Shown in pieces: positions 49,984 through 62,709 of a stretch of 64,000 bases of DNA. Position 1 is the first letter of the stretch, and every line of letters starts with the position of its first letter. The stretch spans positions 12,769 to 76,768 of the forward strand of contig JAHFFT010000003.1 in assembly GCA_023247795.1 (NCBI GenBank). Direction: 5' to 3'. The notes below the pieces were generated by a model. That model saw only the letters and a list, made by a program, of their open reading frames with translations. It did no database searches and was not told where the DNA came from. Both the position numbers and the translations under genes were made by a program. The stretch is from Candidatus Omnitrophota bacterium. GTDB lineage: Bacteria; Omnitrophota; Gorgyraeia; Zapsychrales; JANLHA01.

Positions 49984-51249
49984 ATGTTAGAAAAACTTGT
50001 CATTGAAGGTCAGCATCCTCTCAAAGGAACGGTTGAAATCAGCGGGTCAAAAAACGCGGTGTTGCCGATTCTGGCGGCCACCTTATTGACCGAGGGAACA
50101 TGCATCATCGAAAACGTTCCCCGTCTGCGCGATACCTTAACCATGATCGCTTTGCTGCGTTCACTGGGGAAGGACGTTGACTTCACGAAAAATACCGTTA
50201 CCGTCGGTGGGAACAAACCGTTAAAGCACATTGCCGAGTATAAATTGGTTTCGACGATGCGCGGTTCTTTTTGTGTCTTAGGGCCGCTTTTGGCAAAATT
50301 GAAAAAGGCCAAGGTCTCGCTGCCGGGCGGTTGCGTGATTGGCGTCCGTCCCGTCGACTTACATTTGAAGGGGCTCAAAACACTGGGCGTCAAATTCGAG
50401 ATTGATGGCGGGTATGTGATCGGTCATGCCCCGCGGATGAAGGGGAGTCAGATTTATTTAGGCGGGGTCTTTGGCTCATCGGTTTTAGCGACGGCCAATC
50501 TGATGATGGCCGCGACCTTGATCAAAGGAGAAACCGTGATTGATTCTGCCGCGTGCGAGCCAGAGATTTATGATCTTGGATGTTTTTTGAGTAAGATGGG
50601 GGCGCAAATAACTGGCTACGGGACGCCACGGATCGTTATCCAGGGGGTGAAGGAACTTAAGGGTGCTCATTATCGCATTGGTCCGGATCGGGTGGAAGCG
50701 GGGACGTATATTTTGCTGGCGGCCGCGACAAAAAGTTCGATCACTTTAAAAAATGCTGATTGTTCGCAGTTGGTCGCGTTGAAGGATAAATTGGAAGAGC
50801 ATGGTGTGGAACTTCAGTGTGACGCGCAAACCATTGTTGTCAAACCGAAATTTTTAAGACGTCCGACGAGCATCACCACCTATCCTTACCCAGGATTTCC
50901 TACTGATTTGCAAGCACAGTTTATGGCCCTGATGGCAAATACACCGGGAGTCAGTGTGATCACTGATAAAGTTTTTCCCGATCGGTTCATCCACATTGCC
51001 GAGTTGAACCGTATGGGCGCGCAAATCCGCCGAGAAGGAAGCATCGCGGTCGTCGAGGGGGTCCGGGTTTTGCATGGGGCTCCGGTCATGGCCTCGGATC
51101 TGCGGGCCTCAGCCGCTTTAGTGATTGCCGGACTGGCGGCAAAAGGTAAAACCGAGATCCATCGTGTCTATCATTTGGAGCGCGGCTATGAAGGGATTGA
51201 ACATAAATTGCAAAAGATCGGGGCCAAAATCAATCGGGTCAAGGAATGA
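49984..51249 (+). CDS. murA: UDP-N-acetylglucosamine 1-carboxyvinyltransferase
   Basis: 421 aa. ..GSKNAVLPILAA..L.. N-terminus. Catalytic Cys-region loop (..LPGGCVIGVRPVDLH..). EPSP-synthase-like fold. Confidence 0.92.
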   Translation: MLEKLVIEGQHPLKGTVEISGSKNAVLPILAATLLTEGTCIIENVPRLRDTLTMIALLRSLGKDVDFTKNTVTVGGNKPLKHIAEYKLVSTMRGSFCVLGPLLAKLKKAKVSLPGGCVIGVRPVDLHLKGLKTLGVKFEIDGGYVIGHAPRMKGSQIYLGGVFGSSVLATANLMMAATLIKGETVIDSAACEPEIYDLGCFLSKMGAQITGYGTPRIVIQGVKELKGAHYRIGPDRVEAGTYILLAAATKSSITLKNADCSQLVALKDKLEEHGVELQCDAQTIVVKPKFLRRPTSITTYPYPGFPTDLQAQFMALMANTPGVSVITDKVFPDRFIHIAELNRMGAQIRREGSIAVVEGVRVLHGAPVMASDLRASAALVIAGLAAKGKTEIHRVYHLERGYEGIEHKLQKIGAKINRVKE

Positions 51250-51255
51250 CCCCGG

Positions 51256-51276
51256 TTCTGACCTGCGAGGTCAGAA
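51256..51276 (+). other. perfect 8-bp stem / 5-nt loop hairpin (TTCTGACC-tgcga-GGTCAGAA) in the 44-nt murA-trpG spacer
   Basis: Read directly. There is no canonical U-tract after it (gttgggttcaataattt), so the terminator call is uncertain. Confidence 0.35.
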
Positions 51277-51293
51277 GTTGGGTTCAATAATTT

Positions 51294-51866
51294 ATGTTGT
51301 TGATCATCGATAACTATGATTCTTTCACCTATAACCTGGTTCAATATTTTGGTGAGCTCAAAGCAGACCTTAAGGTCTTTCGCAACGACGCGATCTCTTT
51401 GCGAAAAATCAAACAGCTCAAGCCAAAGCAGATTGTCATCTCTCCTGGACCTGGCCGACCGGAAGACGCCGGCATTTCCGTCGATCTGATCAAAACCTTT
51501 GCCGGAACAATCCCCATTTTAGGTGTTTGCCTTGGTCATCAAGCGTTGGGTTATGCTTATGGCGGAAAGATCGTCGCTGCCAAGCGCTTAATGCATGGGA
51601 AGACCTCGTCGATCCAGCATAATGGAAAAGAAATTTTTCAATCCATTGAAAATCCCTTTGATGCCACACGTTACCACTCCTTGGTGATCGAAAAGCGCAG
51701 TCTGCCAAAATGTCTGGAAGTCACGGCCGTCACCAAAGACGCGTACCGTGAAATCATGGCGGTTCGCCATAAGACCCTGCCGCTGTGGGGTGTCCAGTTT
51801 CATCCAGAATCGATCCTTACTCAGGTTGGAAAGAAAATTCTAAAAAATTTTTTACAGATTTCATGA
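51294..51866 (+). CDS. trpG: anthranilate synthase component II (class I glutamine amidotransferase). Could also serve as PabA
   Basis: 190 aa. ..[10 protein letters not shown].. (catalytic Cys) and ..QFHPES.. (His). Sits directly upstream of trpD-C-F. Confidence 0.85.
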
Positions 51867-52873
51867 GACAATTCATTGAAAAGGTCCGGAACAAAGAAAA
51901 TTTAACGCATGCCGAGATGGAAGCGGTTATGCGTCTGATCGTTGATGGTAAGGCCGCGAATCAAGAAATCGCGGATTTTTTATTGGCCCTCAACGCTAAA
52001 GGCCCGACGGTGGAAGAGATCACCGGTGCCGCGAAGTCTTTGCGTTCCTTTGCCATCCCGGTGCCGACGAAGCATAGAGTTGTTCTTGATACCTGTGGGA
52101 CCGGAGGGGATCGCAAAGACACTTTCAATATTTCTACTGTCGCGGCATTGGTTGTTGCCGGGGCCGGTGTTGTTGTCGCCAAACACGGGAATCGTTCCAT
52201 CACCAGCCGTTGCGGGAGTGCCTGCATTTTGGAAGCTTTGGGAGTGAATCTCAACGTCGAAGAAAAGCGTTTGGGAACATGCCTGGATGAGATTGGGATT
52301 GCTTTCCTTTTCGCTCAGCGACTGCATCCGGCGATGAAACGGGTGGCTGTGGTGCGTAAAGAATTGGGTGTGCAGACCCTTTTCAATTTGTTGGGTCCGC
52401 TGCTCAACCCCGCCCGAGCGACCCATCAGATGATGGGGGTGAACCATCGGGATTTGGTCGAGCCCATGGCGCAGGTGTTAAAGAATTTAGGGTTGAAGCG
52501 GGGCTTGGTTGTGCATGGCAGCGATGGGCTTGATGAAATCACCACCACCGCAAAAAGTTTTGTCAGTGAATTTGCGGATGGACAGGTGCGGTCTTACACG
52601 ATTGAGCCACGGGAAGTGGGTATTCCTTTAGCTAAGGAAAATGATTTGAAGGGCGGCGGTTTGCCGGAAAATAGGAAGATTTTCAAAGCGATTTTGCAAG
52701 GTCAGCCTGGTCCCAAACGCGATATCGTGGTTCTCAATTCCGCCTATGCGTTTTATACCGCCGAGCGGGTCAAAGATATTAAAGAGGGGATCGCCTTAGC
52801 TGAGCAATCCATTGATTCTGGTAACGCTCAAAAGAAACTGGACGCTTTGATTTCTTATACTCAACAGAGTTAA
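51863..52873 (+). CDS. trpD: anthranilate phosphoribosyltransferase
   Basis: The ATG at 51863 (MRQFIEKV..) overlaps the trpG stop (ATGA). ..[17 protein letters not shown].. and ..VAKHGNRS.. motifs. About 336 aa. The track ORF starts upstream at 51785. Confidence 0.9.
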
Positions 52874-52896: not shown

Positions 52897-53700
52897 ATGT
52901 CGTCGGATTTTTTAAAAGAAGTCGTTCAGTATAAAAAAAAGCTTAACAAAAAGAAAGAGGCCTTTTACGAAGGCTTAAAGAGAAACACGACGAAGACCAA
53001 GCTCACCCGTTATCGTCTTTTTAGAGAAGCGATCTCCAAACCCCGTCGGATCAATCTCATTGCGGAAATCAAAAAAGCCTCACCATCACAGGGGCTGATC
53101 TGTAAAAAATTTGACGCGCTTAAAATTGCCGACACTTACGTTGAGAATAAGTGCGACGCCATTTCAGTCTTGACCGAGGACAAGTTTTTCTTGGGGAGTT
53201 TTCGCTATTTGAGGCAGGTCACGGACCAATTTGCCGTTCCGGTTTTAACCAAAGATTTTATTATCGAGGAAGGGCAGGTTTATGAGGCCTTTTGTTTCGG
53301 CGCAAGTGCCATTTTGTTGATTGTGGCGATCTTGAGCGATGAGCAACTCACAACGCTCATGCAAATCGCCGCTCGACTTGATCTTGATTGTCTGGTTGAA
53401 GTCCACGATGAAAAGGAATTGGACCGGGCCTTGCATGCCAAGGCTGATATCATCGGGATCAACCACCGCAATTTGCGCACGTTGGATGTGGATTTGAATG
53501 TCAGCGAAAAGCTCATTCCGCGGATACCGTCGGGAAAGATCATTGTCGCGGAAAGCGGGATCAAGAGCCATCAAGATGTCCTCCGATTAAAGGAGCTGGG
53601 CGCCCATGCTGTTTTGATTGGGGAAAGTTTTTTACGAGCAGATGATGTGGGTGCCCGGTTAAGAGAAATTATGTATGGCGACACGGATAAGCGGCCATGA
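52897..53700 (+). CDS. trpC: indole-3-glycerol phosphate synthase
   Basis: 267 aa. ..IAEIKKASPS.G.I.., ..ISVLTE..FF.GS.., ..GINHRNL.T.. motifs. Confidence 0.9.
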   Translation: MSSDFLKEVVQYKKKLNKKKEAFYEGLKRNTTKTKLTRYRLFREAISKPRRINLIAEIKKASPSQGLICKKFDALKIADTYVENKCDAISVLTEDKFFLGSFRYLRQVTDQFAVPVLTKDFIIEEGQVYEAFCFGASAILLIVAILSDEQLTTLMQIAARLDLDCLVEVHDEKELDRALHAKADIIGINHRNLRTLDVDLNVSEKLIPRIPSGKIIVAESGIKSHQDVLRLKELGAHAVLIGESFLRADDVGARLREIMYGDTDKRP

Positions 53701-54308
53701 CCAGAGTCAAGATTTGCGGGATCACCAATATTGAGGATGCCTTGCTGGCAAGCGATCTGGGGGCCTGGGCGCTGGGATTCATTTTTTACAAAAAAAGTCC
53801 GCGCTACGTTGGGTCCAAAAAAGTCAAAGCGATCATTAAGCAATTGCCGCCTTTTGTTACTCCGGTCGGGGTTTTTGTCAACGAAAAAGCAGATGTTGTT
53901 AACAAAACAGCGGATTTTTGCGGACTGAAGGTGTTGCAGTTTCATGGGGAAGAGAGTCCGGCGTATTGTCGTTCATTCAAAGCCTATCGAGTGATCAAGG
54001 CCTTTCGGGTTAAGGGTACGTTTGATTTGAAGGTCCTGAAGCCCTATCAGGTTTCTGCGTATCTGTTTGACACCTATCAGCATGATCAATATGGTGGAAC
54101 TGGCCAGTCTTTTGATTGGCAGTTGATAAAATCGGTCAAGAAGACCGGCATTCCAATGATTCTTTCTGGCGGCCTTCATATTGGCAATTTGGGGGAGGCA
54201 ATTAAAGCAGCTCAACCCTATGCGGTTGATATCTCAAGCGGGGTAGAGTCCTCTCCAGGCAAAAAAAGCGAATCAAAATTGAGGCAGTTATTTAAGAATG
54301 TTCTTTAA
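53697..54308 (+). CDS. trpF: phosphoribosylanthranilate isomerase
   Basis: 203 aa. MTRVKICGIT N-terminus and ..LSGGL...N..EA.. C-terminal motif. ATGA overlap with trpC. Confidence 0.88.
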   Translation: MTRVKICGITNIEDALLASDLGAWALGFIFYKKSPRYVGSKKVKAIIKQLPPFVTPVGVFVNEKADVVNKTADFCGLKVLQFHGEESPAYCRSFKAYRVIKAFRVKGTFDLKVLKPYQVSAYLFDTYQHDQYGGTGQSFDWQLIKSVKKTGIPMILSGGLHIGNLGEAIKAAQPYAVDISSGVESSPGKKSESKLRQLFKNVL

Positions 54309-54323
54309 GAAAAGCATTGCGCC

Positions 54324-55673
54324 ATGAGAGAATCCGAAACAATCGAATTCAAGAAATCCACCACCGAGGTTAAGGCGGGGGTTACTTCTATTGTGGCAAT
54401 GCTCAATAAGCATGGCCGGGGAGAGGTGTATTTTGGTATCAATGATGACGGTAAGGTTTTAGGGCAGACCCTCGGGCGGACAACGATCAAGGATATAACG
54501 CAGGCGGTGGTGGATAATACGGAGCCGAAGGTTTATCCAAAGGTGGAGGCGCGGCAGATTGAGGGTAGAGAATGTATTGTTGTGGAGGCCCATGGGAGCG
54601 ATAGTCCATATTTTGCTTATGGCCGGACATACATCCGCGTTGGGGATTCGGACAAAGCCATGAGTCCGCAGGAAATTGAAACACGCATACTCAACAGGAA
54701 GAAACTGCTTTGGGAAAAAGAAATATCTGAAAAGACCTTTGCCGATGTCAATGAGGATACGGTCAAGGAATTTATGCGTAAAGCTAAGGCGGCCAAGCGC
54801 ATTGATTTTGATTTCGTCGATGTTAAAACCACGTTAAAAAAGCTTCATCTACTGCATAAGAATCAATTGACCAATGCGGCTGAGGTTTTTTTTTGTGATG
54901 AAAATTCAATGGAAGTCCAAGCGGCAATTTTTGCTGGGACGGACAAGCTGACTTTTTTGGATATTAAGTCTTTTAAGGGAAATCTTTTTAGCTTACGTCA
55001 GCAGGCGGAGATTTATGTTGAAAGTAATATGAAATGGCGTGCGGATTTAAGTGAAAGCCGTCGCAAAGAAATTCCAGAAATTCCCGTGCGGGCTCTTGCG
55101 GAGGCAATCGGGAATTCGTTGTGCCACAGGGATTTTACTAATCCTAAGGGTAATGAAGTGGCCATTTATAAAGATCGGATTGATATTTATAACCCGGGCT
55201 TATTCCCGGAAGGGATCAATCCAGAGGATTTTTTTAGCGGTGAAGAACAATCAATTTTACGAAATCCTTTGATCGCGGAAACGATGTTTAAGTCTAAAGA
55301 TATTGAAAAATGGGGAAGCGGCATTAAGCGCATTCATGATGAATGTGTGGCCGCTGGCGTTAGGGTTGTCTTTAATAGGCGCAAAACGGGTTTTGTGGTT
55401 TCTTTTTATCGGCCTAAGTGGGAAGATGGGGAAGGTTTAGGTGAGGATGGCCCAAAAACTATCAAGAAAACTATCGAGAAAACTATCAAGAAAAATAGTC
55501 AGAAAATTTTAGATTTGGTACGTCAAAATCCAAAGATTACGGCGGAAGAATTGGCTAAAGCAACAGGGTTAAGCAGTGTCGGCGTTAGGTACAATTTAAA
55601 TAAGTTGAAAAAAGAAAATGTGCTAAAAAGGGTCGGCCCCGACAAAGGTGGTCATTGGGAGGTTGTTGGGTAG
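54324..55673 (+). CDS. AlbA_2 (Schlafen-like divergent AAA) + HATPase_c_4 + C-terminal winged-HTH protein (the family often annotated as 'RecG C-terminal domain-like transcriptional regulator'). Inserted between trpF and trpB
   Basis: 449 aa. N-terminal ESETIEFKKS...GGEVYFGINDDGKVLG (AlbA_2 signature). Central ..ALAEAIGNSLCHRDFTNPKGNEVAIYKDRIDIYNPGLFPEGI.. (HATPase_c_4 signature). C-terminal ..ILDLVRQNPKITAEELAKATGLSSVGVRYNLNKLKKENVLKRVG.. (wHTH). Contains an in-frame 3 x 12-nt tandem repeat at 55455..55490. Confidence 0.75.
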   Translation: MRESETIEFKKSTTEVKAGVTSIVAMLNKHGRGEVYFGINDDGKVLGQTLGRTTIKDITQAVVDNTEPKVYPKVEARQIEGRECIVVEAHGSDSPYFAYGRTYIRVGDSDKAMSPQEIETRILNRKKLLWEKEISEKTFADVNEDTVKEFMRKAKAAKRIDFDFVDVKTTLKKLHLLHKNQLTNAAEVFFCDENSMEVQAAIFAGTDKLTFLDIKSFKGNLFSLRQQAEIYVESNMKWRADLSESRRKEIPEIPVRALAEAIGNSLCHRDFTNPKGNEVAIYKDRIDIYNPGLFPEGINPEDFFSGEEQSILRNPLIAETMFKSKDIEKWGSGIKRIHDECVAAGVRVVFNRRKTGFVVSFYRPKWEDGEGLGEDGPKTIKKTIEKTIKKNSQKILDLVRQNPKITAEELAKATGLSSVGVRYNLNKLKKENVLKRVGPDKGGHWEVVG

Positions 55674-55869
55674 TTGCGAGAGATTATTTATAGATGATAC
55701 TATGGTCGCGGGGTTTAAAATTTTTTAACATATTTTTCAACCTTATTTTGAGCAAATGATATTTTAAAATATTTGTAAAATATTGTAATTAAACAACTTA
55801 CATTTTTAGTAAAAATTTAAAATACTGCTTTTACGGGTTGTCATCTCAAAAACAATGTGCTATGCTTAA

Positions 55870-56066
55870 AGAGCCGATAAAGGCAAACCCGGGGAAACCC
55901 GGGGACGCAAAACTACAGACCTACGTTATCTGAAAACCGGAAAGGCCCTTTAAGGCAACTGTGGCGCCTTTGGGCATAGTAGACTTGAACGGTGTAAGTA
56001 GGATGATATGGTGGCTGTGTTGCCGAAGTGCTGGGGAACTGATATGACCCCCACTTTATCGGCCTT
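55870..56066 (+). promoter_or_regulatory. candidate c-di-GMP-I (GEMM) riboswitch upstream of the secreted-protein gene. The 5' half at 55882..55913 matches the aptamer core GGCAAACC-[4-bp stem + GAAA tetraloop]-GGGACGCAAA(A)C. The element is bracketed by a 10-bp inverted repeat (GCCGATAAAG / CTTTATCGGC) and followed by a U-rich tract
   Basis: aGGCAAACC-CGGG-GAAA-CCCG-GGGACGCAAAAC compares with the V. cholerae Vc2 sequence GGCAAACC-AUUC-GAAA-GAGU-GGGACGCAAAGC as recalled from memory. A downstream GUUGCCGAA (56018..56026) resembles the conserved 3' GGUUACCGA region. The second hairpin could not be assigned by eye. Confidence 0.4.
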
Positions 56067-56084
56067 CTTAATTTTTTCCCCAAT

Positions 56085-56837
56085 TTGAAAATGAACAAAT
56101 TAGCGACCTGTTTTTATCTTATTCTGCTGGCATTCTGTTTTTTTGCCTCACCGGTATTTTCACAAGAACAAAATCTTGAACAAAACAATCAGGCCAATCT
56201 TGATGAGCCAACGGCCCAACCCATTGAATTTAACAGTGCAAAATTTGGGGTCACACTGACTTTTCCGACTGGGTGGGTGGTTGAGCCGCAGGAAGATAAA
56301 AGAGCAGCAAAGGCCGAAGAAGTTCAGGGTGTCTATTCTCGAGAGAACTTAACCGATCGGACCAAAGGTCTGTTGGGCCAGCCACTTTTTCCTGGCGGCG
56401 AGGAAGAGCAAGCCATCGATCAATTGGTGGGCGATTTAACCAATGCCTCGGTATCAGCGGTACCGATCGTCTCTGCTTATCACAACGATCCGCAGCAGAT
56501 TGAAATCGCAGAGCGTCCGCATATCTATCTTCGGGTGAAACCCATTAGCAGCAACGATCCCTTTGCTGAAGAAAGGAGTGCCTGGCAGCTCAGCGTCAAA
56601 TTTGCTAAAGGAACATTTGTGGTTCCCCCAAATGAGTTTAACCATAAGGGTATCGACGCTATCGGGACCATTTACAATTATCAATCCCTGTCCTCCGGTG
56701 TCGAGATCACCCAAGAAGATTACGCGTTTCGCCATGGACAGGAATTGCTGACCCTTTCTTTAATTGCCCCATCATCAGAAGTCGAAAGTCTTCGAATGGA
56801 TTTTGACTCTGTTCTCGACAGCCTTGTTTTAAGATAA
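56085..56837 (+). CDS. hypothetical secreted protein (signal peptide)
   Basis: 250 aa. N-terminal MKMNKLATCFYLILLAFCFFASPVFSQ signal peptide. No recognisable domain. Sits downstream of the riboswitch-like element. Confidence 0.55.
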   Translation: MKMNKLATCFYLILLAFCFFASPVFSQEQNLEQNNQANLDEPTAQPIEFNSAKFGVTLTFPTGWVVEPQEDKRAAKAEEVQGVYSRENLTDRTKGLLGQPLFPGGEEEQAIDQLVGDLTNASVSAVPIVSAYHNDPQQIEIAERPHIYLRVKPISSNDPFAEERSAWQLSVKFAKGTFVVPPNEFNHKGIDAIGTIYNYQSLSSGVEITQEDYAFRHGQELLTLSLIAPSSEVESLRMDFDSVLDSLVLR

Positions 56838-56906
56838 TTCTTAAGAAGGCAATAATCCGCCATCCTTTCTTGAGATAACTTTTGAAAATCCTTTCCAAAG
56901 ATTCAA

Positions 56907-56918
56907 TTGTGGTATAAT
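56907..56918 (+). promoter_or_regulatory. extended -10 promoter element (TGgTATAAT) 9 nt upstream of the ATG at 56928, implying a near-leaderless transcript for the Zn-ribbon/M20/DUF3108/trpBA unit
   Basis: caattgTGgTATAATatcggtttcATG. A weak -35-like TTTCCA lies 15 nt upstream. Confidence 0.4.
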
Positions 56919-56927
56919 ATCGGTTTC

Positions 56928-57230
56928 ATGGTCAACAAATTCATTCGTGTTTATCAGGAAATTGATATTCAGGATGTCAAGACGCACAGCCTCATTTTTG
57001 GCGATCTCTCCGGAAATTGTTCCCAATGCAAGGCCATCAGCATCAAGCTTTCCGCTAGCCAGTGTCCCGAATGTCAAACGACTTTTAAGTACATTGCTTT
57101 TCGAAACATGAAGAGCCACCAGGCCAAGGTCCATAAAATCAAAGCGGAACGTCCCAGCCTGATTTTGATTGATTATGACGATTATAAGATTGCGACCAGC
57201 ATTTCGAAGGCCGAGGAGTTGTTTGGATGA
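56928..57230 (+). CDS. hypothetical small zinc-ribbon protein (two CxxC pairs)
   Basis: About 100 aa from ATG 56928 (MVNKFIRVYQEIDIQ...). CSQC...(12 aa)...CPEC. The stop overlaps the start of the M20 peptidase gene (ATGA). The track ORF starts at an upstream TTG inside the promoter. Confidence 0.5.
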   Translation: MVNKFIRVYQEIDIQDVKTHSLIFGDLSGNCSQCKAISIKLSASQCPECQTTFKYIAFRNMKSHQAKVHKIKAERPSLILIDYDDYKIATSISKAEELFG

Positions 57231-58378
57231 AAAAAGAAGATAAAAGGGTCATTCAGCTCTTACAAAAAATCGTTCGCTATAATTCGGAAAATCCCCCAGG
57301 GAATGAATGGGAGCTGGCAAAATTCATTGAGCATGACCTGCGTTCGTTAGGGCTGGAAGTTAAGATTTATACCTATGCCAAGGCCAGGCCGAACATCGTT
57401 GCCACTTTGAAAGGAATTTTACCCAGGCAGCAAGCCAAGAGCGGGGCACTGCTGTTAACCCCGCATTTTGATACCGTGCCGATTGGAAAGGGGTGGAAGC
57501 AGGACCCGCTCGGCGGAAAAATCATTGGCAATAAAATTTATGGACGGGGAACGTCCGATGATAAGGTCAACGTCGCGGTGGCAATGGAAGTGATGCGGCG
57601 GCTCGTTGAGAAACGGGTCCGGCTGAAAAAGGACGTTATCATGGCCGCGACCGTTGATGAAGAGACCGGCAGTCAATACGGCATCATTCCACTTCTTGAG
57701 AAAGGGATCTTAAAACCCAAGGCCGCGTTGATTTTGGATGCCAATGAATTTGACGCGACCGTCGCGCAAAAAGGGCTTTTTCATACGCGGATCCAAATTT
57801 TTGGCAAACAGGCGCATGGGGCTTATAACTGGCGGGGTGTCAACGCGATTGAGATTGCGGCACGCGTGATTGAGAAGATCAAAAAACATCAATTTACTTT
57901 TAAGCGTCATCCCTTGTTGCGTCCTCCGACGATGAATATCGGGACCATCCACGGCGGGGACAAAGTCAATATGGTGGCGGGTTTTTGTGAATTCTCGCTG
58001 GATAACCGTTTTATGCCGGGCATGACCGGCGCCGAGGTTTTGAAAGTCATTAAAAAAATTATTCGCAGTGAAACCAAAAGATTTCAAGTGATCATCAGCG
58101 ATAGCCAGAAACCTTATGAGATTTCCGCGGAACATCCCTTTGTTAAGACGTATTTAGCGACCGCAAAAAGGATGAAAATCAAGTCAACCCTTTGCGGCAG
58201 CGAAGGGGCAACGGTCATGACATTCTTTCAGGAATTTAAGATCCCGGCATTTGCAACCGGTTTTGGCGCGCATGGAACGGCCCATACCGTCGATGAATAC
58301 GCTAAGGTCGATCTTTTGGTCAAGGGCGCTCAGTTTTTGGAAAGGGTTGTAAGGGATTTTGATGAGGTTGGCTCATGA
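57227..58378 (+). CDS. M20-family metallopeptidase (ArgE/DapE/acetylornithine deacetylase - succinyl-diaminopimelate desuccinylase-like)
   Basis: 383 aa. ..LLTPHFDTVP.G..W..DP.., ..YGRGTSDDK.. (metal-binding Asp), dimerisation-domain insert, C-terminal ..HT.DEY.. Confidence 0.75.
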   Translation: MKKEDKRVIQLLQKIVRYNSENPPGNEWELAKFIEHDLRSLGLEVKIYTYAKARPNIVATLKGILPRQQAKSGALLLTPHFDTVPIGKGWKQDPLGGKIIGNKIYGRGTSDDKVNVAVAMEVMRRLVEKRVRLKKDVIMAATVDEETGSQYGIIPLLEKGILKPKAALILDANEFDATVAQKGLFHTRIQIFGKQAHGAYNWRGVNAIEIAARVIEKIKKHQFTFKRHPLLRPPTMNIGTIHGGDKVNMVAGFCEFSLDNRFMPGMTGAEVLKVIKKIIRSETKRFQVIISDSQKPYEISAEHPFVKTYLATAKRMKIKSTLCGSEGATVMTFFQEFKIPAFATGFGAHGTAHTVDEYAKVDLLVKGAQFLERVVRDFDEVGS

Positions 58379-59103
58379 AAATTTGGACCGGAACGGCTCT
58401 GGGTTGTCTTCTGGTGATTTGGGCTCCGGGCCAACTGCCGCTGGCACTGAGGGCGGCCGGCCAGAGCCAGGCCGTGGCGGTCGTTGCCGTCGGTGAGAAA
58501 GTAACGTACTCTATCAAGCAGTTAGGGATCACGTCAGGAACCGCGACCCTGGTTTATCAAGGCCAGGCGCCGGGAGAAGCCGCGGATGTTCATCTCATTG
58601 TCTTCACTGCGGATGGCATGAATTTTTATGATCAGGAAAAAATCTATTTTCACCACCAGTCTTTTCTTCCGATGAGGGTCGAGCGGGACATCAATATTTT
58701 CGGCAAGAAAGAAAAGATCATCGAATATTACGAGCCTGATCAGGAACGGATTCGGATTGTCAAGACCATCGGTAAAGCGACCGAGGAACAGATCATTAAA
58801 AAAGCAGGGCCGATTGACAATATTTATTGCTTCATTTATCGCTATCGGCAAAACGGCCAGTTTGCCTTGAATGAAGCGTTGAACTTGCGTCTGCCCACAC
58901 AGGATGTCGCGATGAGCATTGTTGATCAACCAAAGCTTAAGGTCGCCGGAGAGTTGTATGATGCGTTTTATCTGCAAAGCCATCCGGAAAAATATCATAT
59001 CTGGTTTGACGGGAGCGAGAAGAAAATTCCTTTGCGGATCGACGGCGCGATTGGTTTTGGTAAGACCGCGATGATCATGAGCAAATACGAAAACCCGAGT
59101 TAA
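58375..59103 (+). CDS. hypothetical exported protein, tentatively DUF3108-like
   Basis: 242 aa. N-terminal signal-like hydrophobic segment. Beta-rich composition. Family assignment is from overall resemblance only. ATGA overlap with the M20 gene, and trpB starts 3 nt after its stop. Confidence 0.45.
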
Positions 59104-59105
59104 AA

Positions 59106-60293
59106 ATGAAAACATTCCCTGATAAACACGGACATTTCGGTGAATTTGGCGGACAGTTTGTCCCCGAGACCTTGATGTCGTGTCTGGCTGATCTTAAAAA
59201 GGCTTTTGCGACTTTGCGTAAACAAAAAGCGTTTCAACAGGAGCTCGCGCATTATTTGAACGATTATGCCGGAAGGCCGACCAAGCTGTATTTTGCCGAG
59301 CGGCTGAGCCAAAAGTTTAAAAATTTGAAAATTTATTTAAAGCGGGAAGACCTTCTGCATACGGGTGCGCATAAGATCAATAATACCTTGGGGCAGATTT
59401 TATTGGCCAAACACATGGGCAAGACCCGCATCATTGCCGAGACCGGTGCTGGTCAGCATGGGGTCGCGACCGCGACCGTGTCAGCGCTTTTTGGCCTCAA
59501 GTGTCAGATTTATATGGGACAGCAGGACATGGAACGTCAGGCGCTGAATGTTTTTCGCATGCAGTTGTTGGGGGCAACGGTTGTCCCGGTGACCAGCGGT
59601 TCGCAAACGCTCAAGGACGCGATGAATGAAGCGATCCGTGATTGGGTGACGAATGTCCGAGACACGTTTTACATCATCGGTTCGGTTGCCGGCCCGCATC
59701 CCTATCCTTTGATCGTCCGGGAGTTTCAGTCGATCATTGGGCGGGAGGCGAGGATGCAGTTTTTGTTGAAGGAGAAGAAATTGCCGGATTATCTCGTCGC
59801 CTGTGTTGGTGGAGGGAGCAATGCCATGGGATTGTTTCATGCGTTTTATCAAGATCACCGGGTTCAGATGATTGGAGTTGAGGCAGCTGGCCGCGGGGTC
59901 AACACCGACCATCATTCGGCAACGTTGTCGAGCGGAAGCATCGGCGTTCTGCATGGAAGTAAAAGCGAACTTTTACAAACCAAAGACGGACAGATTCGGA
60001 TCGCCCATTCGATTGCCGCGGGGTTGGATTATCCCGGAGTGGGGCCAGAACACGCGTATTATAAAAAAATCGGGCGCGCTCGGTATGAGTCGGTCACTGA
60101 TCAAGAGGCGTTGTCTGGGCTGAAACTTTTATCGGAAACCGAAGGGATCATTCCAGCACTGGAAAGCTCGCACGCGATTTTTTATTTAACGAAAATGAAC
60201 CGGCAGGTCAAGAAAAAGTCTTCGGTGATTGTCTGTTTATCCGGACGCGGGGATAAGGACATGCACACGGTGCGCGAGAAATTATTAAAATGA
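59106..60293 (+). CDS. trpB: tryptophan synthase beta chain
   Basis: 395 aa. ..[13 protein letters not shown].. (PLP lysine) and ..GGGSNA.G.F.. motifs. Confidence 0.92.
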
Positions 60294-60320
60294 AAAATCG
60301 TATTCAACAAAAATTTCCCA

Positions 60321-60359
60321 CACTCCCAGGGTTCAACCCCCGGGGCAACCCCGGGAGTG
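60321..60359 (+). repeat. 39-nt palindromic element (CACTCCCAGGG-TTCAA-CCCCCGGGGCAACCCCGGGAGTG) lying between two near-identical copies of the trpA 5' end
   Basis: The outer arms CACTCCC / GGGAGTG and the inner CCCGGGG / CCCCGGG are self-complementary. It is flanked by atgaaaaatcgtattcaacaaaaattt (60290) and atgatcaatcggatcaagcagaaattt (60371), which are about 22/27 identical. Related to aaacccggggaaacccgggg at 55886. Confidence 0.5.
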
Positions 60360-60370
60360 AAGAGGATGTC

Positions 60371-61180
60371 ATGATCAATCGGATCAAGCAGAAATTTGTA
60401 GAATTGAAAAAATGGCAGAAGAAGGCGTTCATTGCTTATATCGCCGCCGGCGATCCCAACCTCGGGACCACGGTAGAGCTGGTTAAGGCCTTTGATCAAG
60501 CCGGGGTGGATATTGTTGAGCTGGGTGTTCCTTTTTCTGATCCGTTGGCCGACGGAACAACGATTCAGATGGCGTCGCAACGGGCGCTCAAGCAAGGAGT
60601 GACGATCAACAAAATTTTACAAATCGTTCAGCGAATCCGCCAAACCAGCCAGATTCCTATTGCTTTAATGACCTATTACAATCCAATTTTTCATTATGGA
60701 TTAGCCGCCTTTTTGAAGAAGGCCCGGCAGGCCGGTGTCGATGGAGTGATCGTGCCTGACCTTCCTCCAGAAGAAGGGCAGGACTTGATCAGAGAAGCAA
60801 AAAAATTTGATTTAGCGACGGTATTTTTTATTTCCCCAACGACCCAGGTCCATCGAATGGCCCGGATCGCCAAGGCCAGCACCGGATTTGTATATTATGT
60901 TTCCGTGACCGGCATCACCGGCGCGCGCCAAATTCTCCCAAAAGAGCTCATCGAGAATATCAAAAAAGCCAAACGCTTGACGGATAAACCGATTTGCGTT
61001 GGTTTCGGGGTTTCAACCCCTGAACAGGTCAAGCAATTGTCGCAAGCGGCCGACGGTGTCATTGTTGGAAGTGCAATCATTAAGCAGATTGAGAAACATC
61101 GCGGTAAGAAGGATTTGATCAAATCGGTTTCGCGTTTTGTTCAAGAGCTAGCCAAGCCTTTAAGAACACATGAAAGATAA
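60371..61180 (+). CDS. trpA: tryptophan synthase alpha chain
   Basis: The ATG at 60371 gives MINRIKQKFVELKKWQKKAFIAYIAAGDP, which aligns with TrpA N-termini. An in-frame upstream ATG at 60290 (overlapping the trpB stop) would add 27 aa spanning the palindromic element. About 269 aa from 60371. Confidence 0.85.
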   Translation: MINRIKQKFVELKKWQKKAFIAYIAAGDPNLGTTVELVKAFDQAGVDIVELGVPFSDPLADGTTIQMASQRALKQGVTINKILQIVQRIRQTSQIPIALMTYYNPIFHYGLAAFLKKARQAGVDGVIVPDLPPEEGQDLIREAKKFDLATVFFISPTTQVHRMARIAKASTGFVYYVSVTGITGARQILPKELIENIKKAKRLTDKPICVGFGVSTPEQVKQLSQAADGVIVGSAIIKQIEKHRGKKDLIKSVSRFVQELAKPLRTHER

Positions 61181-62456
61181 TCCTTACAAACTAACTCTAT
61201 TGGATAATGGTCTGCGGGTTGTTACTCACCAAATGAAAGATCGGGTGAGTGTGGCGGTGGGGATTGGGATTGCCGCTGGCGGCCGTTATGAAAATGATGA
61301 GAACAAAGGGGTTGCCCACTTTCTTGAGCACATCCTTTTCAAGGGGAGCGAGCATTACAGTTGTTCAGCGATCAAGGAAGAGGTCGAGGGTGTTGGAGGA
61401 AGTCTCAATGCCTTTACTTCCGAGGAGCAAACCTGTTATTACGCGAAAGTCCCGGCGGCTTATCTGCACCGGAGTTTTGATGTCTTGGCTGATATGGTGA
61501 TCTCTCCGAAGATACCGAAGCCGGAGTTCGAAAAAGAACGCAACGTCATCCTCGAAGAAATCAAGATGTATCATGACTTACCACAGTACCAGGTCATGGA
61601 AATGCTCGACGAGCTGATGTGGCCGAATCAGCCTTTGGGGAAAAGTTTGGCCGGCACAGCGGAATCCGTGCAAATGCTTAAGCAGAAAGATTTGCGTCAT
61701 TTTCATCAAAGCCATTATGTGGCCAAGAATATTGTGGTGGCTGCTTGCGGTGCTGTAAATCACAATTCGTTTGTAACGGTTGTCCGGTCAAAATTCAAAG
61801 CGCTGCCGCGTGTGGATGTTCAGACCTTTTCGCCAGCGAGCATTTCCGACGGCAAACAAAGGTTACGAATTTTTACTAAAGAGATCGAGCAAACCCATTT
61901 AGCCTTTGGCGTTCCTGGGTTAGAAGAAAAGCACCCGGACCGTTATGTCTATTACCTATTGCACATCATTTTAGGCGGCAATATGTCCAGCCGGCTTTTT
62001 AATGAGGTCAGGGAAAAGCGCGGGTTGGCGTATTCGATCTCAAGCGGAATCAAGGCCCTCAGGGATACGGGTATGTTTTTGATCAGCGCCGGGGTGGATA
62101 AAGACAAGCTGGTGGATGCGGTTGAGGTGATTTTACAGCAGCTTAAAAAAATCGCAAAGTCAGGTGTTGAAAAAGATGAATTCAATCGCGCGAAAGAATT
62201 TTATTTGGGTCAAGTCCAGTTGAATTTGGAAAGTACCACCAATCAGCTGTTTTGGGCGGTGGGGATGATCATGATCGACGATGAGCTGCGCACGCTTTCA
62301 GACGTGGTCAAAGCGGTCAAGAAGATCACCGTGTCAGATGTCCAACGGGTGGCGAAAACGCTTTTTAAGGACGAGCGATACCGCCTGGCGGTCATCGGGC
62401 CCGTTAAGAAAGATCAGACCGAACAATTGGAAAAATTGTTCGCGGTTTCGCGTTGA
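61170..62456 (+). CDS. M16-family zinc peptidase (insulinase/pitrilysin-like)
   Basis: 428 aa. Inverted zinc motif HFLEHILFKG (HxxEH) and downstream glutamate region. Overlaps the trpA end by 11 nt. Confidence 0.8.
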   Translation: MKDNPYKLTLLDNGLRVVTHQMKDRVSVAVGIGIAAGGRYENDENKGVAHFLEHILFKGSEHYSCSAIKEEVEGVGGSLNAFTSEEQTCYYAKVPAAYLHRSFDVLADMVISPKIPKPEFEKERNVILEEIKMYHDLPQYQVMEMLDELMWPNQPLGKSLAGTAESVQMLKQKDLRHFHQSHYVAKNIVVAACGAVNHNSFVTVVRSKFKALPRVDVQTFSPASISDGKQRLRIFTKEIEQTHLAFGVPGLEEKHPDRYVYYLLHIILGGNMSSRLFNEVREKRGLAYSISSGIKALRDTGMFLISAGVDKDKLVDAVEVILQQLKKIAKSGVEKDEFNRAKEFYLGQVQLNLESTTNQLFWAVGMIMIDDELRTLSDVVKAVKKITVSDVQRVAKTLFKDERYRLAVIGPVKKDQTEQLEKLFAVSR

Positions 62457-62538: not shown

Positions 62539-62709
62539 ATGGAAGAATTATCGTTTTACGATGTTAAGTCAAAGAAGAAATTCAACAGTTCAGAATACAG
62601 TGTGAAGCAAAAAAGTGGTCGTTTTTTTGCAGTCACAAAATCCAAAGCTGGTCCGCACGAATGCTGGCGCGTATTGAGCAAAGATCAAGCCGCAAAAATT
62701 AAAAAGTAG
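62539..62709 (+). CDS. hypothetical small basic protein (56 aa) absent from the ORF track (below its length cut-off)
   Basis: Strong SD (AGGAGG) 7 nt upstream of the ATG. MEELSFYDVKSKKKFNSSEYSVKQKSGRFFAVTKSKAGPHECWRVLSKDQAAKIKK. Upstream TTAGAC-18-TATAAT promoter-like pair. Lys-rich, which suggests a nucleic-acid-binding protein. Confidence 0.45.
   Translation: MEELSFYDVKSKKKFNSSEYSVKQKSGRFFAVTKSKAGPHECWRVLSKDQAAKIKK

Follow-up and report, generated by a model that had tools for sequence, protein, structure and literature searches.

Kagan et al. (2008; PMC2395257), citing Xie et al. (2003), describe split trp operons that have conserved non-trp genes within them or next to them. The examples given there include the order trpF-B-X-A in Burkholderia, truA/pyrF before trpF, and accD-folC after trpA. 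Here we analyze a 64-kb stretch of DNA from a Candidatus Omnitrophota genome (the window), in which trpG-D-C-F and trpB-A, all on the + strand, lie 4.8 kb apart. This locus is a variant of such split operons, which are well known, and is specific to the phylum. As in the described cases, the canonical order and the common strand are retained, the genes form sub-clusters, and unrelated genes are conserved at the breaks across the lineage. However, the site of the split (trpG-D-C-F and trpB-A) is different, and trpE is detached to the his operon. The intervening genes encode a zinc-ribbon protein (ZnR), an M20-family deacylase and a DUF3108 protein, the flanking genes are murA, the M16 peptidase gene and rsfS, and the break holds a riboswitch for cyclic di-GMP (c-di-GMP) and two variable cargo slots. 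We consider it likely that the 4.8 kb between trpF and trpB are not one insertion, but a phylum-wide backbone with two recent additions, trpE being encoded elsewhere.

In the aromatic supraoperon of Bacillus subtilis, trpEDCFBA lies within a larger set of aro, his and tyr genes. The two loci are alike in that the trp genes lie within a longer co-directional string with internal promoters. However, the trp genes of B. subtilis are contiguous and have functionally related neighbors, whereas here the neighbors are unrelated housekeeping and envelope genes.

Gene order at the trp locus and the position of trpE

The open reading frames (ORFs), family assignments (by Pfam and NCBIfam) and junctions were re-derived from the window. 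All ORFs, coordinates, domain calls and junctions of the original prediction were reproduced (Table 1). For the comparison, 36 homologs of the DUF3108 protein, named Candidatus Omnitrophota by their sources, were aligned, and 80 loci were retrieved (denoted below by L and a number). These are GTDB species representatives with 10-kb flanks; the genome of the window is not among them, and the best DUF3108 identity to the window is 55%. Each window protein from rpmE to rsfS was compared with the 80 loci by tblastn.

The recurring order is rpmE-prfA-prmC-murA-trpG-trpD-trpC-trpF-(gap)-ZnR-M20-DUF3108-(gap)-trpB-trpA-M16-sm56-rsfS. When the riboswitch is included, the backbone has a variable slot after trpGDCF, then the c-di-GMP riboswitch and ZnR; argS follows rsfS. 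ZnR-M20-DUF3108 upstream of trpB and M16-sm56-rsfS downstream of trpA are found in nearly all 80 loci, and trpB lies downstream of DUF3108 in 71 of the 72 loci that reach past the latter. The order trpGDCF directly after murA is present in 21-29 other species, and both trp sub-clusters, in the canonical order and on a common strand, in 29 loci. The exception is L058 (CAZQQI010000003.1), where murA-trpC-trpF ... ZnR-M20-DUF3108-X178-M16 are kept and the backbone is intact, but trpG, trpD, trpB and trpA are gone from the locus. Thus the trp genes of this species are partly relocated or lost.

The distances between the genes vary to a different extent. The ZnR-M20 junction is -4 nt (an ATGA overlap) in 52 of 70 loci, and trpA and M16 are separated by at most 30 nt in 43 of 56. 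The M20-DUF3108 junction is at most 0 nt in 36 of 75 loci and often about 400-600 nt in the remaining ones. DUF3108 and trpB are separated by at most 30 nt in 30 of 71 loci (42%) and by more than 500 nt in 28 (39%). The distance from trpF to ZnR has a minimum of 112 nt, a median of 1238 nt and a maximum of up to 7 kb.

Optional genes occupy fixed positions in the longer gaps. A 147-aa membrane protein (Y147) is encoded between M20 and DUF3108 in 21 loci, and a PD40/TolB-like protein (11 loci) and a 178-aa protein (X178, 17 loci) between DUF3108 and trpB. Since such genes are found elsewhere at fixed positions, the window is a stripped-down version of the block, and the abutment of DUF3108 and trpB is most simply explained as a gene-loss state: loss of the three optional genes would have left junctions of -4, -4 and +2 nt. 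The slot between trpF and the riboswitch varies in content from species to species. It recurrently holds a PolB-exo-like exonuclease gene, and other occupants encode ZnuA/ABC, FIST, PMT_2, MORN-PAS and TPR proteins and giant proteins without known identity. In this genome the slot is occupied by the gene of the AlbA_2/winged-HTH protein.

The original prediction considered 54324-59103 as an insertion and an unusual reorganization of the operon, and proposed a comparison of the synteny from trpF to trpB. The comparison does not bear this out for most of the stretch, as the relatives keep ZnR-M20-DUF3108 as a native block in the same order. The riboswitch, regarded as a part of the insert, is conserved at the same position in the relatives. 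Only the AlbA_2 gene and Sec250, the gene of a secreted protein behind the riboswitch, are lineage-specific: they have no tblastn match in 85 other loci even without the coverage filter.

The base composition agrees with the expected foreign origin for one part of the stretch, but not for the other. The strongest deviation of tetranucleotide and GC content in the whole window is at 54.5-57.0 kb (z = 4.4, 3.5 and 2.6; GC z about -3), whereas 57.0-59.1 kb, with ZnR, M20 and DUF3108, is native (z from -0.9 to -0.15). The GC content of third codon positions is 0.44 in the AlbA_2 gene and 0.45 in Sec250, compared to 0.55-0.58 in ZnR, M20 and DUF3108 and 0.50-0.58 in the trp genes. Thus the AlbA_2 gene and Sec250 are lineage-specific, compositionally foreign cargo flanking the riboswitch. 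In a sister species (62% identity) a 248-aa gene, compared by length, precedes M20 at the position of Sec250; given this gene of the same size, the acquisition of Sec250 is roughly genus-level. For the AlbA_2 protein, PADLOC yields only weak partial matches (to regions of SIR2-PNTD and wHTH); Sec250, ZnR and DUF3108 have none. In the AlbA_2 gene, three tandem 12-nt units at 55455-55502 encode the linker KTIKKTIEKTIKK between the HATPase_c_4 and wHTH domains.

One could suppose that a single foreign cassette of 4.8 kb recently entered an intact trpGDCFBA operon and captured trpBA in doing so. The deviant composition of the AlbA_2 and Sec250 stretch, its absence from the relatives and the tight junctions would agree with that. 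However, dozens of species with DUF3108 identities of 41-55% have ZnR-M20-DUF3108 and the riboswitch at this same position, and the three genes are native in composition. No tRNA and no convincing flanking repeats were found in the window, and no integrase or transposase domains among the domain calls of its proteins. The synteny refutes such an insertion for 55868-56078 and 56910-59103, and we regard it as extremely improbable.

No trpE was found in the window by tblastn with E. coli TrpE at E at most 10 or with Omnitrophota TrpE at E at most 1e-3, nor in the few kb beyond the window covered by short ENA and Logan contigs. Thus the absence of trpE, as originally stated, holds for the window; however, it does not amount to a loss, as the relatives keep trpE directly after hisI. 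The E. coli TrpE probe matches the loci only at the far-left ends of L028, L050 and L069, about 8 kb upstream of ZnR. A fragment of Omnitrophota TrpE retrieves many full-length proteins named anthranilate synthase component I. Their genomic contexts, in the loci L083-L086 additional to the 80, are of two types. The first is hisB-H-A-F-I-trpE-trpG-D-C-F with unrelated genes downstream (L083, which is from Ca. Gorgyraea atricola, and L086), and the second is hisD-B-H-A-F-I-trpE-rpsP-yajC-secDF (L084, L085). The sizes of the unannotated ORFs from trpE to ZnR in L050 match the string of L084. According to a preprint on 176 complete Omnitrophota genomes, trpE, trpG, trpD, trpA and trpB are present in 174-176 of them.

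To summarize, trpE is tied to the his operon, trpGDCF follow either trpE or murA, and trpBA stay with the ZnR block. As there are no his genes in the window, trpE of this genome is expected elsewhere, presumably directly after hisI. The recurrent filler of about 1.6 kb between DUF3108 and trpB was considered as a candidate trpE and rejected: it consists of the PD40/TolB-like and 178-aa protein genes. The arrangement is normal for the whole phylum, and thus it gives no evidence of a recent rearrangement or of a loss of anthranilate synthase.

The ZnR-M20-DUF3108 block and the expression of trpBA

The alignment of 71 orthologs, which has essentially no indels, argues that ZnR is a real gene. The conserved motifs are C31xxC34...C46xxC49 (in full-length orthologs), FKYIAFRN and DYDDY, and the nucleotide identity by codon position is 0.62, 0.75 and 0.38 in the frame of ZnR. 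The gene begins with the ATG at 56928; the TTG at 56907 is not its start. ZnR has no sequence relative in PDB and only a sub-threshold match to Zn_ribbon_5 in Pfam, and the AlphaFold model built from a four-sequence alignment is poor (predicted local distance difference test, pLDDT, 58.6). In place of ZnR, gene callers on public contigs report a 92-aa antisense ORF (56841-57134, - strand), a frame that is open for at least 90 codons in 15 of 60 species, that is, about a quarter. A word-indexed protein search finds four ZnR proteins, and tblastn about 70. Thus the family is under-called, and ZnR is probably missing from many Omnitrophota annotations.

A perfect TATAAT is situated 5-12 nt before the ZnR start codon, its end being 7-10 nt from the ATG, in 45 of 69 species, with the TG extension in 39 of these. 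The same test gives no hit at 14 other cluster genes and 2 hits in 79 at DUF3108. In the window, no other TGnTATAAT than TGGTATAAT has a start codon with an ORF of 40 aa or more close behind it, and no other perfect TATAAT lies 5-12 nt upstream of an ORF of 80 aa or more. The box is not accompanied by a Shine-Dalgarno sequence; species without it have GGAG-like motifs or an overlapping upstream gene. The scan for consensus promoters and terminators missed this promoter, which has no -35 element. The promoter originally suspected at about 56913 is thus supported comparatively, and the conserved box supports ZnR as the candidate head of a transcription unit.

Transcription normally begins about 7 nt past the -10 box, and so the ZnR mRNA is predicted to be leaderless or nearly leaderless. 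Leaderless mRNAs with a -10 box abutting the start codon occur in Actinobacteria, Deinococcus and archaea. The situation here is similar in the distance of 7-10 nt between the end of the box and the ATG and in the lack of a Shine-Dalgarno sequence. It is different in that it involves one gene of the cluster and some trpB genes, not a visible genome-wide habit, and is known here from sequence. The ZnR unit would thus be opened by a conserved extended -10 box, and M20 would be translationally coupled to ZnR through the ATGA overlap.

The M20 protein belongs to TIGR01910 (226.2 bits against a cut-off of 217.6), and no ArgE or DapE equivalog model reaches its own cut-off. In the alignment with E. 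coli ArgE (7rsf) the segments PHFDTV/HTDTV, SDDK/ADMK, DEET/DEET and AHTVDEY/AHQPDEY correspond to each other, and an Asp is aligned with the fourth-ligand Glu. We take these residues (H-x-D, the bridging D, E-E, E/D and H) to be metal and catalytic ligands. Judging from this alignment, M20 has the metal ligands of ArgE/DapE.

The amino-group carrier system LysW/LysK combines a small zinc-ribbon protein with an M20 hydrolase; LysW has about 55 aa and an EDWGE tail. Here, too, an ArgE-like M20 gene is immediately preceded by the gene of a small CxxC...CxxC protein. However, ZnR has 100 aa and C-termini such as KAEEFLK, KAEDFFK and KAKGILG without EDWGE, and the candidate was rejected. The neighbors rule out this identity as well, as they are DUF3108 and trpB, with no adjacent LysX/Z/Y/J.

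The DUF3108 protein has a weak Pfam match in the window, and its homologs carry PF11306. Its model is an open beta-barrel (pLDDT 89.9), for which Foldseek yields the DUF1849 structure 6ntr as the best match (E = 1e-4), followed by YmcC, LolA and LolB-like folds. The model indicates an exported envelope protein and not a tryptophan enzyme.

The constant position of the block upstream of trpBA, observed also where trpGDCF sit elsewhere, and the tight DUF3108-trpB junctions in 30 of the 71 loci could mean that ZnR and M20, and perhaps DUF3108, act in tryptophan metabolism. M20 might be, for instance, a deacylase supplying or salvaging a substrate and co-regulated with trpBA. We find this very unlikely. 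The gap between the block and trpB exceeds 500 nt in 28 of the 71 loci, and the identified fillers are unrelated genes; L058 keeps the block without trpBA or trpGD at the locus. In addition, DUF3108 resembles exported LolA/YmcC-like barrels and M20 scores as ArgE/DapE, and M16, sm56, rsfS and argS are equally conserved beside trpBA without a link to tryptophan. The linkage of trpBA to M20 and DUF3108 can be ascribed to conserved gene order in a compact co-directional genome and gives no sign of a shared biochemical role.

The physical connection of trpBA to the ZnR, M20 and DUF3108 genes, as originally described, is confirmed. Two of the ATGA overlaps, at 57227 and 60290, are seen directly in the sequence, and the one at 58375 follows from the ORF coordinates. 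The junction of DUF3108 and trpB is indeed tight, with a spacing of 2 nt. Downstream of the ZnR promoter, the junctions to the end of trpA are -4, -4, +2 and 77 nt, and the terminator scan found no hairpin with a proper U-run between 56928 and 61180. Given the conserved ZnR promoter and the absence of a terminator from ZnR to trpA, co-transcription is the most likely state in this genome. The coupling of DUF3108 and trpB, however, does not hold as a conserved functional one. Thus transcription of trpBA from the ZnR promoter is plausible here and would not be obligatory across the phylum. The locus most likely comprises three candidate units: (murA-)trpGDCF-AlbA, riboswitch-Sec250, and leaderless ZnR-M20-DUF3108-trpB-trpA-M16. 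In the last one, trpB, trpA and M16 would be the distal part of a ZnR-led polycistron, with trpB translated by termination-reinitiation.

The trpA start at 60371 is better supported than the one at 60290, since the TIGR00262 match begins after 60371. It is favored also by GAGGA 6-10 nt upstream and by the sister species, where trpA is called 81 nt after trpB. The 77-nt trpB-trpA spacer contains a hairpin (-26.3 kcal/mol, z = -2.1) without a U-run. The hairpin, CCCGGGG-CAA-CCCCGGG, is flanked by two similar copies of the trpA 5'-end, ATGAAAAATCGTATTCAACAAAAATTT and ATGATCAATCGGATCAAGCAGAAATTT (20 of 27 nt identical). The spacer looks like a small insertion that created an in-frame alternative start. 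The core of its hairpin is similar to the P2 hairpin of the riboswitch (55888-55904); the window contains just these two matches, compared to 0.01 expected by chance.

An alternative is that trpBA are expressed mainly from a promoter of their own, situated towards the 3' end of DUF3108, or through transcription continuing from trpGDCF; the fusion would then be of little regulatory meaning. The co-directional genes would allow read-through, and promoter-like boxes precede trpB in some relatives. These boxes (L003, L007, L008, L009, L012, L022, L035, L042, L045) have the form TATTAT or TGnTTCAAT, end 4-8 nt before the ATG and are sometimes accompanied by a TTGACT -35 box. Given such boxes, trpBA can be independent elsewhere. 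However, there is no -10-like box abutting trpB in the window or in the 30 species with a tight junction, and the promoter-like matches in the region are not enriched (22 against 15.8 +/- 4.5 in shuffles). We consider this alternative unlikely for the window, while leaving it some weight.

Several observations should be set against the reading of the locus as a conserved backbone with a ZnR-led unit. A weak sigma-70-like match is present inside DUF3108 (58603-58632), and an internal promoter is possible. Of the 41 species with a gap before trpB, 8 have a -10-like box next to its start codon, compared to 3.6% of random ATGs, and there is no clear Shine-Dalgarno sequence before trpB of the window. 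The adjacency of trpBA to the block in 71 of 72 loci would be expected from a functional link as well. The optional genes might also have been gained elsewhere instead of lost here. Finally, the location of trpE in this genome rests on the relatives, and the window covers 64 kb only.

The c-di-GMP riboswitch and the site behind it

The Rfam match in the window is to c-di-GMP-I-GGC (RF03167), with 59.9 bits against a gathering threshold of 59 (E = 2.8e-12). Matches to the c-di-GMP-I clan were obtained in all seven relatives' loci tested, scoring 63-66 bits against 35 (RF01051), and 59.1 and 63.5 bits against 59 (RF03167). The riboswitch stretch of the window has blastn matches in about 35 loci. 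A count by regular expression was too rigid and was replaced by our own covariance model, R1, built from 26 sequences. With R1, the window (167.7 bits) and 36 loci each yield a single strong copy, always on the + strand. Sixty species have at least 1 kb of sequence upstream of ZnR, and the riboswitch is present there in 35 of them.

The element is a member of the described c-di-GMP-I (GEMM-I) class (RF01051/RF03167, clan CL00126) by its gathering scores, the GAAA-capped P2, the covariation in P3 and the invariant junction AAAGGCAAAC. Its helices are paired in 98.4% of cells, with compensatory changes in 11 pairs, compared to 27-49% in slid controls; the alignment was fitted to the model, and these values are thus biased towards the structure. 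The differences from the class are a long insertion in P3, an insertion in P2 in some species, and a 10-bp distal helix that encloses the entire aptamer and has a U-tract behind it. This helix is formed by GCCGAUAAAG (55873-55882) and CUUUAUCGGC (56054-56063) and is paired in 98.9% of cells, its support being conserved complementarity only.

A further difference is that a terminator, not a gene, follows the riboswitch in most cases. A canonical hairpin with a T-run lies between the riboswitch and the ZnR promoter in 20 of 22 ZnR-adjacent loci tested, 37-68 nt beyond the riboswitch in 19 loci and 140 nt in one. The distance from the riboswitch end to the ZnR ATG is at most 200 nt in 19 species and 201-350 nt in four, gaps in which no ORF search was made. 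The riboswitch thus appears to be insulated from ZnR in most species. Inspection by eye revealed no pairing between the distal strand and the terminator that would explain an anti-terminator mechanism. In the window there is no terminator behind the riboswitch, and the distance from the distal strand to the start of Sec250 is 22-28 nt. Two loci without ZnR, L002 and L038, have the next gene of the block directly behind the riboswitch.

In 12 of the 35 species the gap exceeds 350 nt, and most of these have an ORF starting close behind the riboswitch. The cargo-bearing copies include those of L003, L005, L053, L057, L059, L073 and the window. The cargo includes 1041-aa and 1215-aa proteins with hydrophobic, signal-peptide-like N-termini, Cys-rich proteins of about 90 aa (motif CCHCGACCGV), a 342-aa protein and, in the window, Sec250. 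Judging from this comparison, the riboswitch is a conserved member of the block, and its downstream side behaves as a cargo site. Sec250 would have taken the place that elsewhere holds a terminator or other, mostly exported, cargo. This suggests a reusable expression site controlled by c-di-GMP or, where no ORF follows, a riboswitch RNA as such.

A more speculative possibility, to which we assign a rather low probability, is that the riboswitch, the terminator and the leaderless ZnR promoter form one regulatory node. The riboswitch might act as an ORF-less c-di-GMP-sensing RNA or as a docking site placing newly acquired exported proteins under c-di-GMP control. It might also gate the ZnR-M20-DUF3108-trpBA unit in genomes such as L002 and L038, and by read-through elsewhere. 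If true, the final step of tryptophan synthesis would depend, in this host-dependent phylum, on a lifestyle switch operated by a second messenger.

Other features of the window and implications

Table 1. Features of the trp locus in the window (positions are those of the 64-kb stretch).
Feature	Position	Strand	Remarks
murA-trpG spacer hairpin	51247-51286	+	no U-run after it
trpG	51294-51866	+	TIGR00566
trpD	51863-52873	+	TIGR01245; ATG at 51863; ATGA overlap with trpG
trpC	52897-53700	+	indole-3-glycerol phosphate synthase (IGPS)
trpF	53697-54308	+	phosphoribosylanthranilate isomerase (PRAI); 4-nt overlap with trpC
AlbA_2 / HATPase_c_4 / HTH_24 (winged-HTH) protein	54324-55673	+	Pfam; 15 nt downstream of trpF
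Promoter-like site	55838-55866	+	TTGTCA-17-TATGCT with TG extension, just upstream of the riboswitch; consensus match only
c-di-GMP-I-class riboswitch	55868-56078	+	Rfam match 55873-56028, distal strand and U-rich tract
Sec250, secreted 250-aa protein	56085-56837	+	signal peptide; no family; likely ATG 56091
Extended -10 promoter TGGTATAAT (candidate)	56910-56918	+	9 nt upstream of the ZnR ATG
ZnR, 100-aa zinc-ribbon protein	56928-57230	+	first gene of the conserved block
M20 ArgE/DapE-family deacylase	57227-58378	+	ATGA overlap with ZnR
DUF3108 protein	58375-59103	+	predicted exported, beta-barrel-like; signal peptide
trpB (TrpB1 type)	59106-60293	+	TIGR00263, 635 bits
trpB-trpA spacer hairpin	60316-60366	+	GC-rich, in the 77-nt spacer
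trpA	60371-61180	+	TIGR00262; alternative in-frame ATG 60290
M16 peptidase gene	61170-62456	+	overlaps the trpA end; followed by sm56 and rsfS

Between murA and trpG there is a spacer of 44 nt, as originally described. However, it is not featureless: it contains a hairpin of -21.3 kcal/mol (z = -4.78), and none of 200 shuffles folds as well. This hairpin is possibly a weak murA terminator or a stabilizer. It is followed by TTCAAT 5 nt upstream of the trpG start codon, an arrangement that resembles TTGACT-N17-TGnTTCAAT-N7-ATG upstream of trpB in L022, L035, L042 and L045. Thus trpG may also have a start-abutting promoter. Judging from the boxes before trpB, promoters of the leaderless type may be a recurrent way of starting Omnitrophota operons.

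All sizeable real genes of the window are on the + strand. Apart from rpmE-prfA-prmC-murA and the trp block, they include genes for the lipopolysaccharide core and 3-deoxy-D-manno-octulosonic acid (Kdo), lptC/A, serA, purA, dxr, nusA-infB, polA, glgA and rho. This extremely co-directional and compact organization helps to explain the overlap of unrelated genes. The ORF sm56 (62539-62709), situated between M16 and rsfS, encodes a conserved small protein of 56 aa with identity of 70-80% across the phylum. It has no family assignment, and its ATG is preceded by GGAGG at a distance of 6 nt.

The original claim is thus deflated; split trp operons with conserved foreign neighbors are textbook knowledge. 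The value of the locus lies elsewhere. Firstly, it contains a strongly conserved, under-annotated gene, ZnR, coupled to the M20 deacylase gene and often missed or called on the wrong strand in metagenome-assembled genomes of Omnitrophota. Secondly, the c-di-GMP riboswitch is conserved in position, usually with a terminator and sometimes with genes of large exported proteins behind it. Finally, the extended -10 box abutting the start codon of ZnR points, directly from sequence, to a promoter and to leaderless transcription; such evidence is rare in a phylum with hardly any cultivated members.

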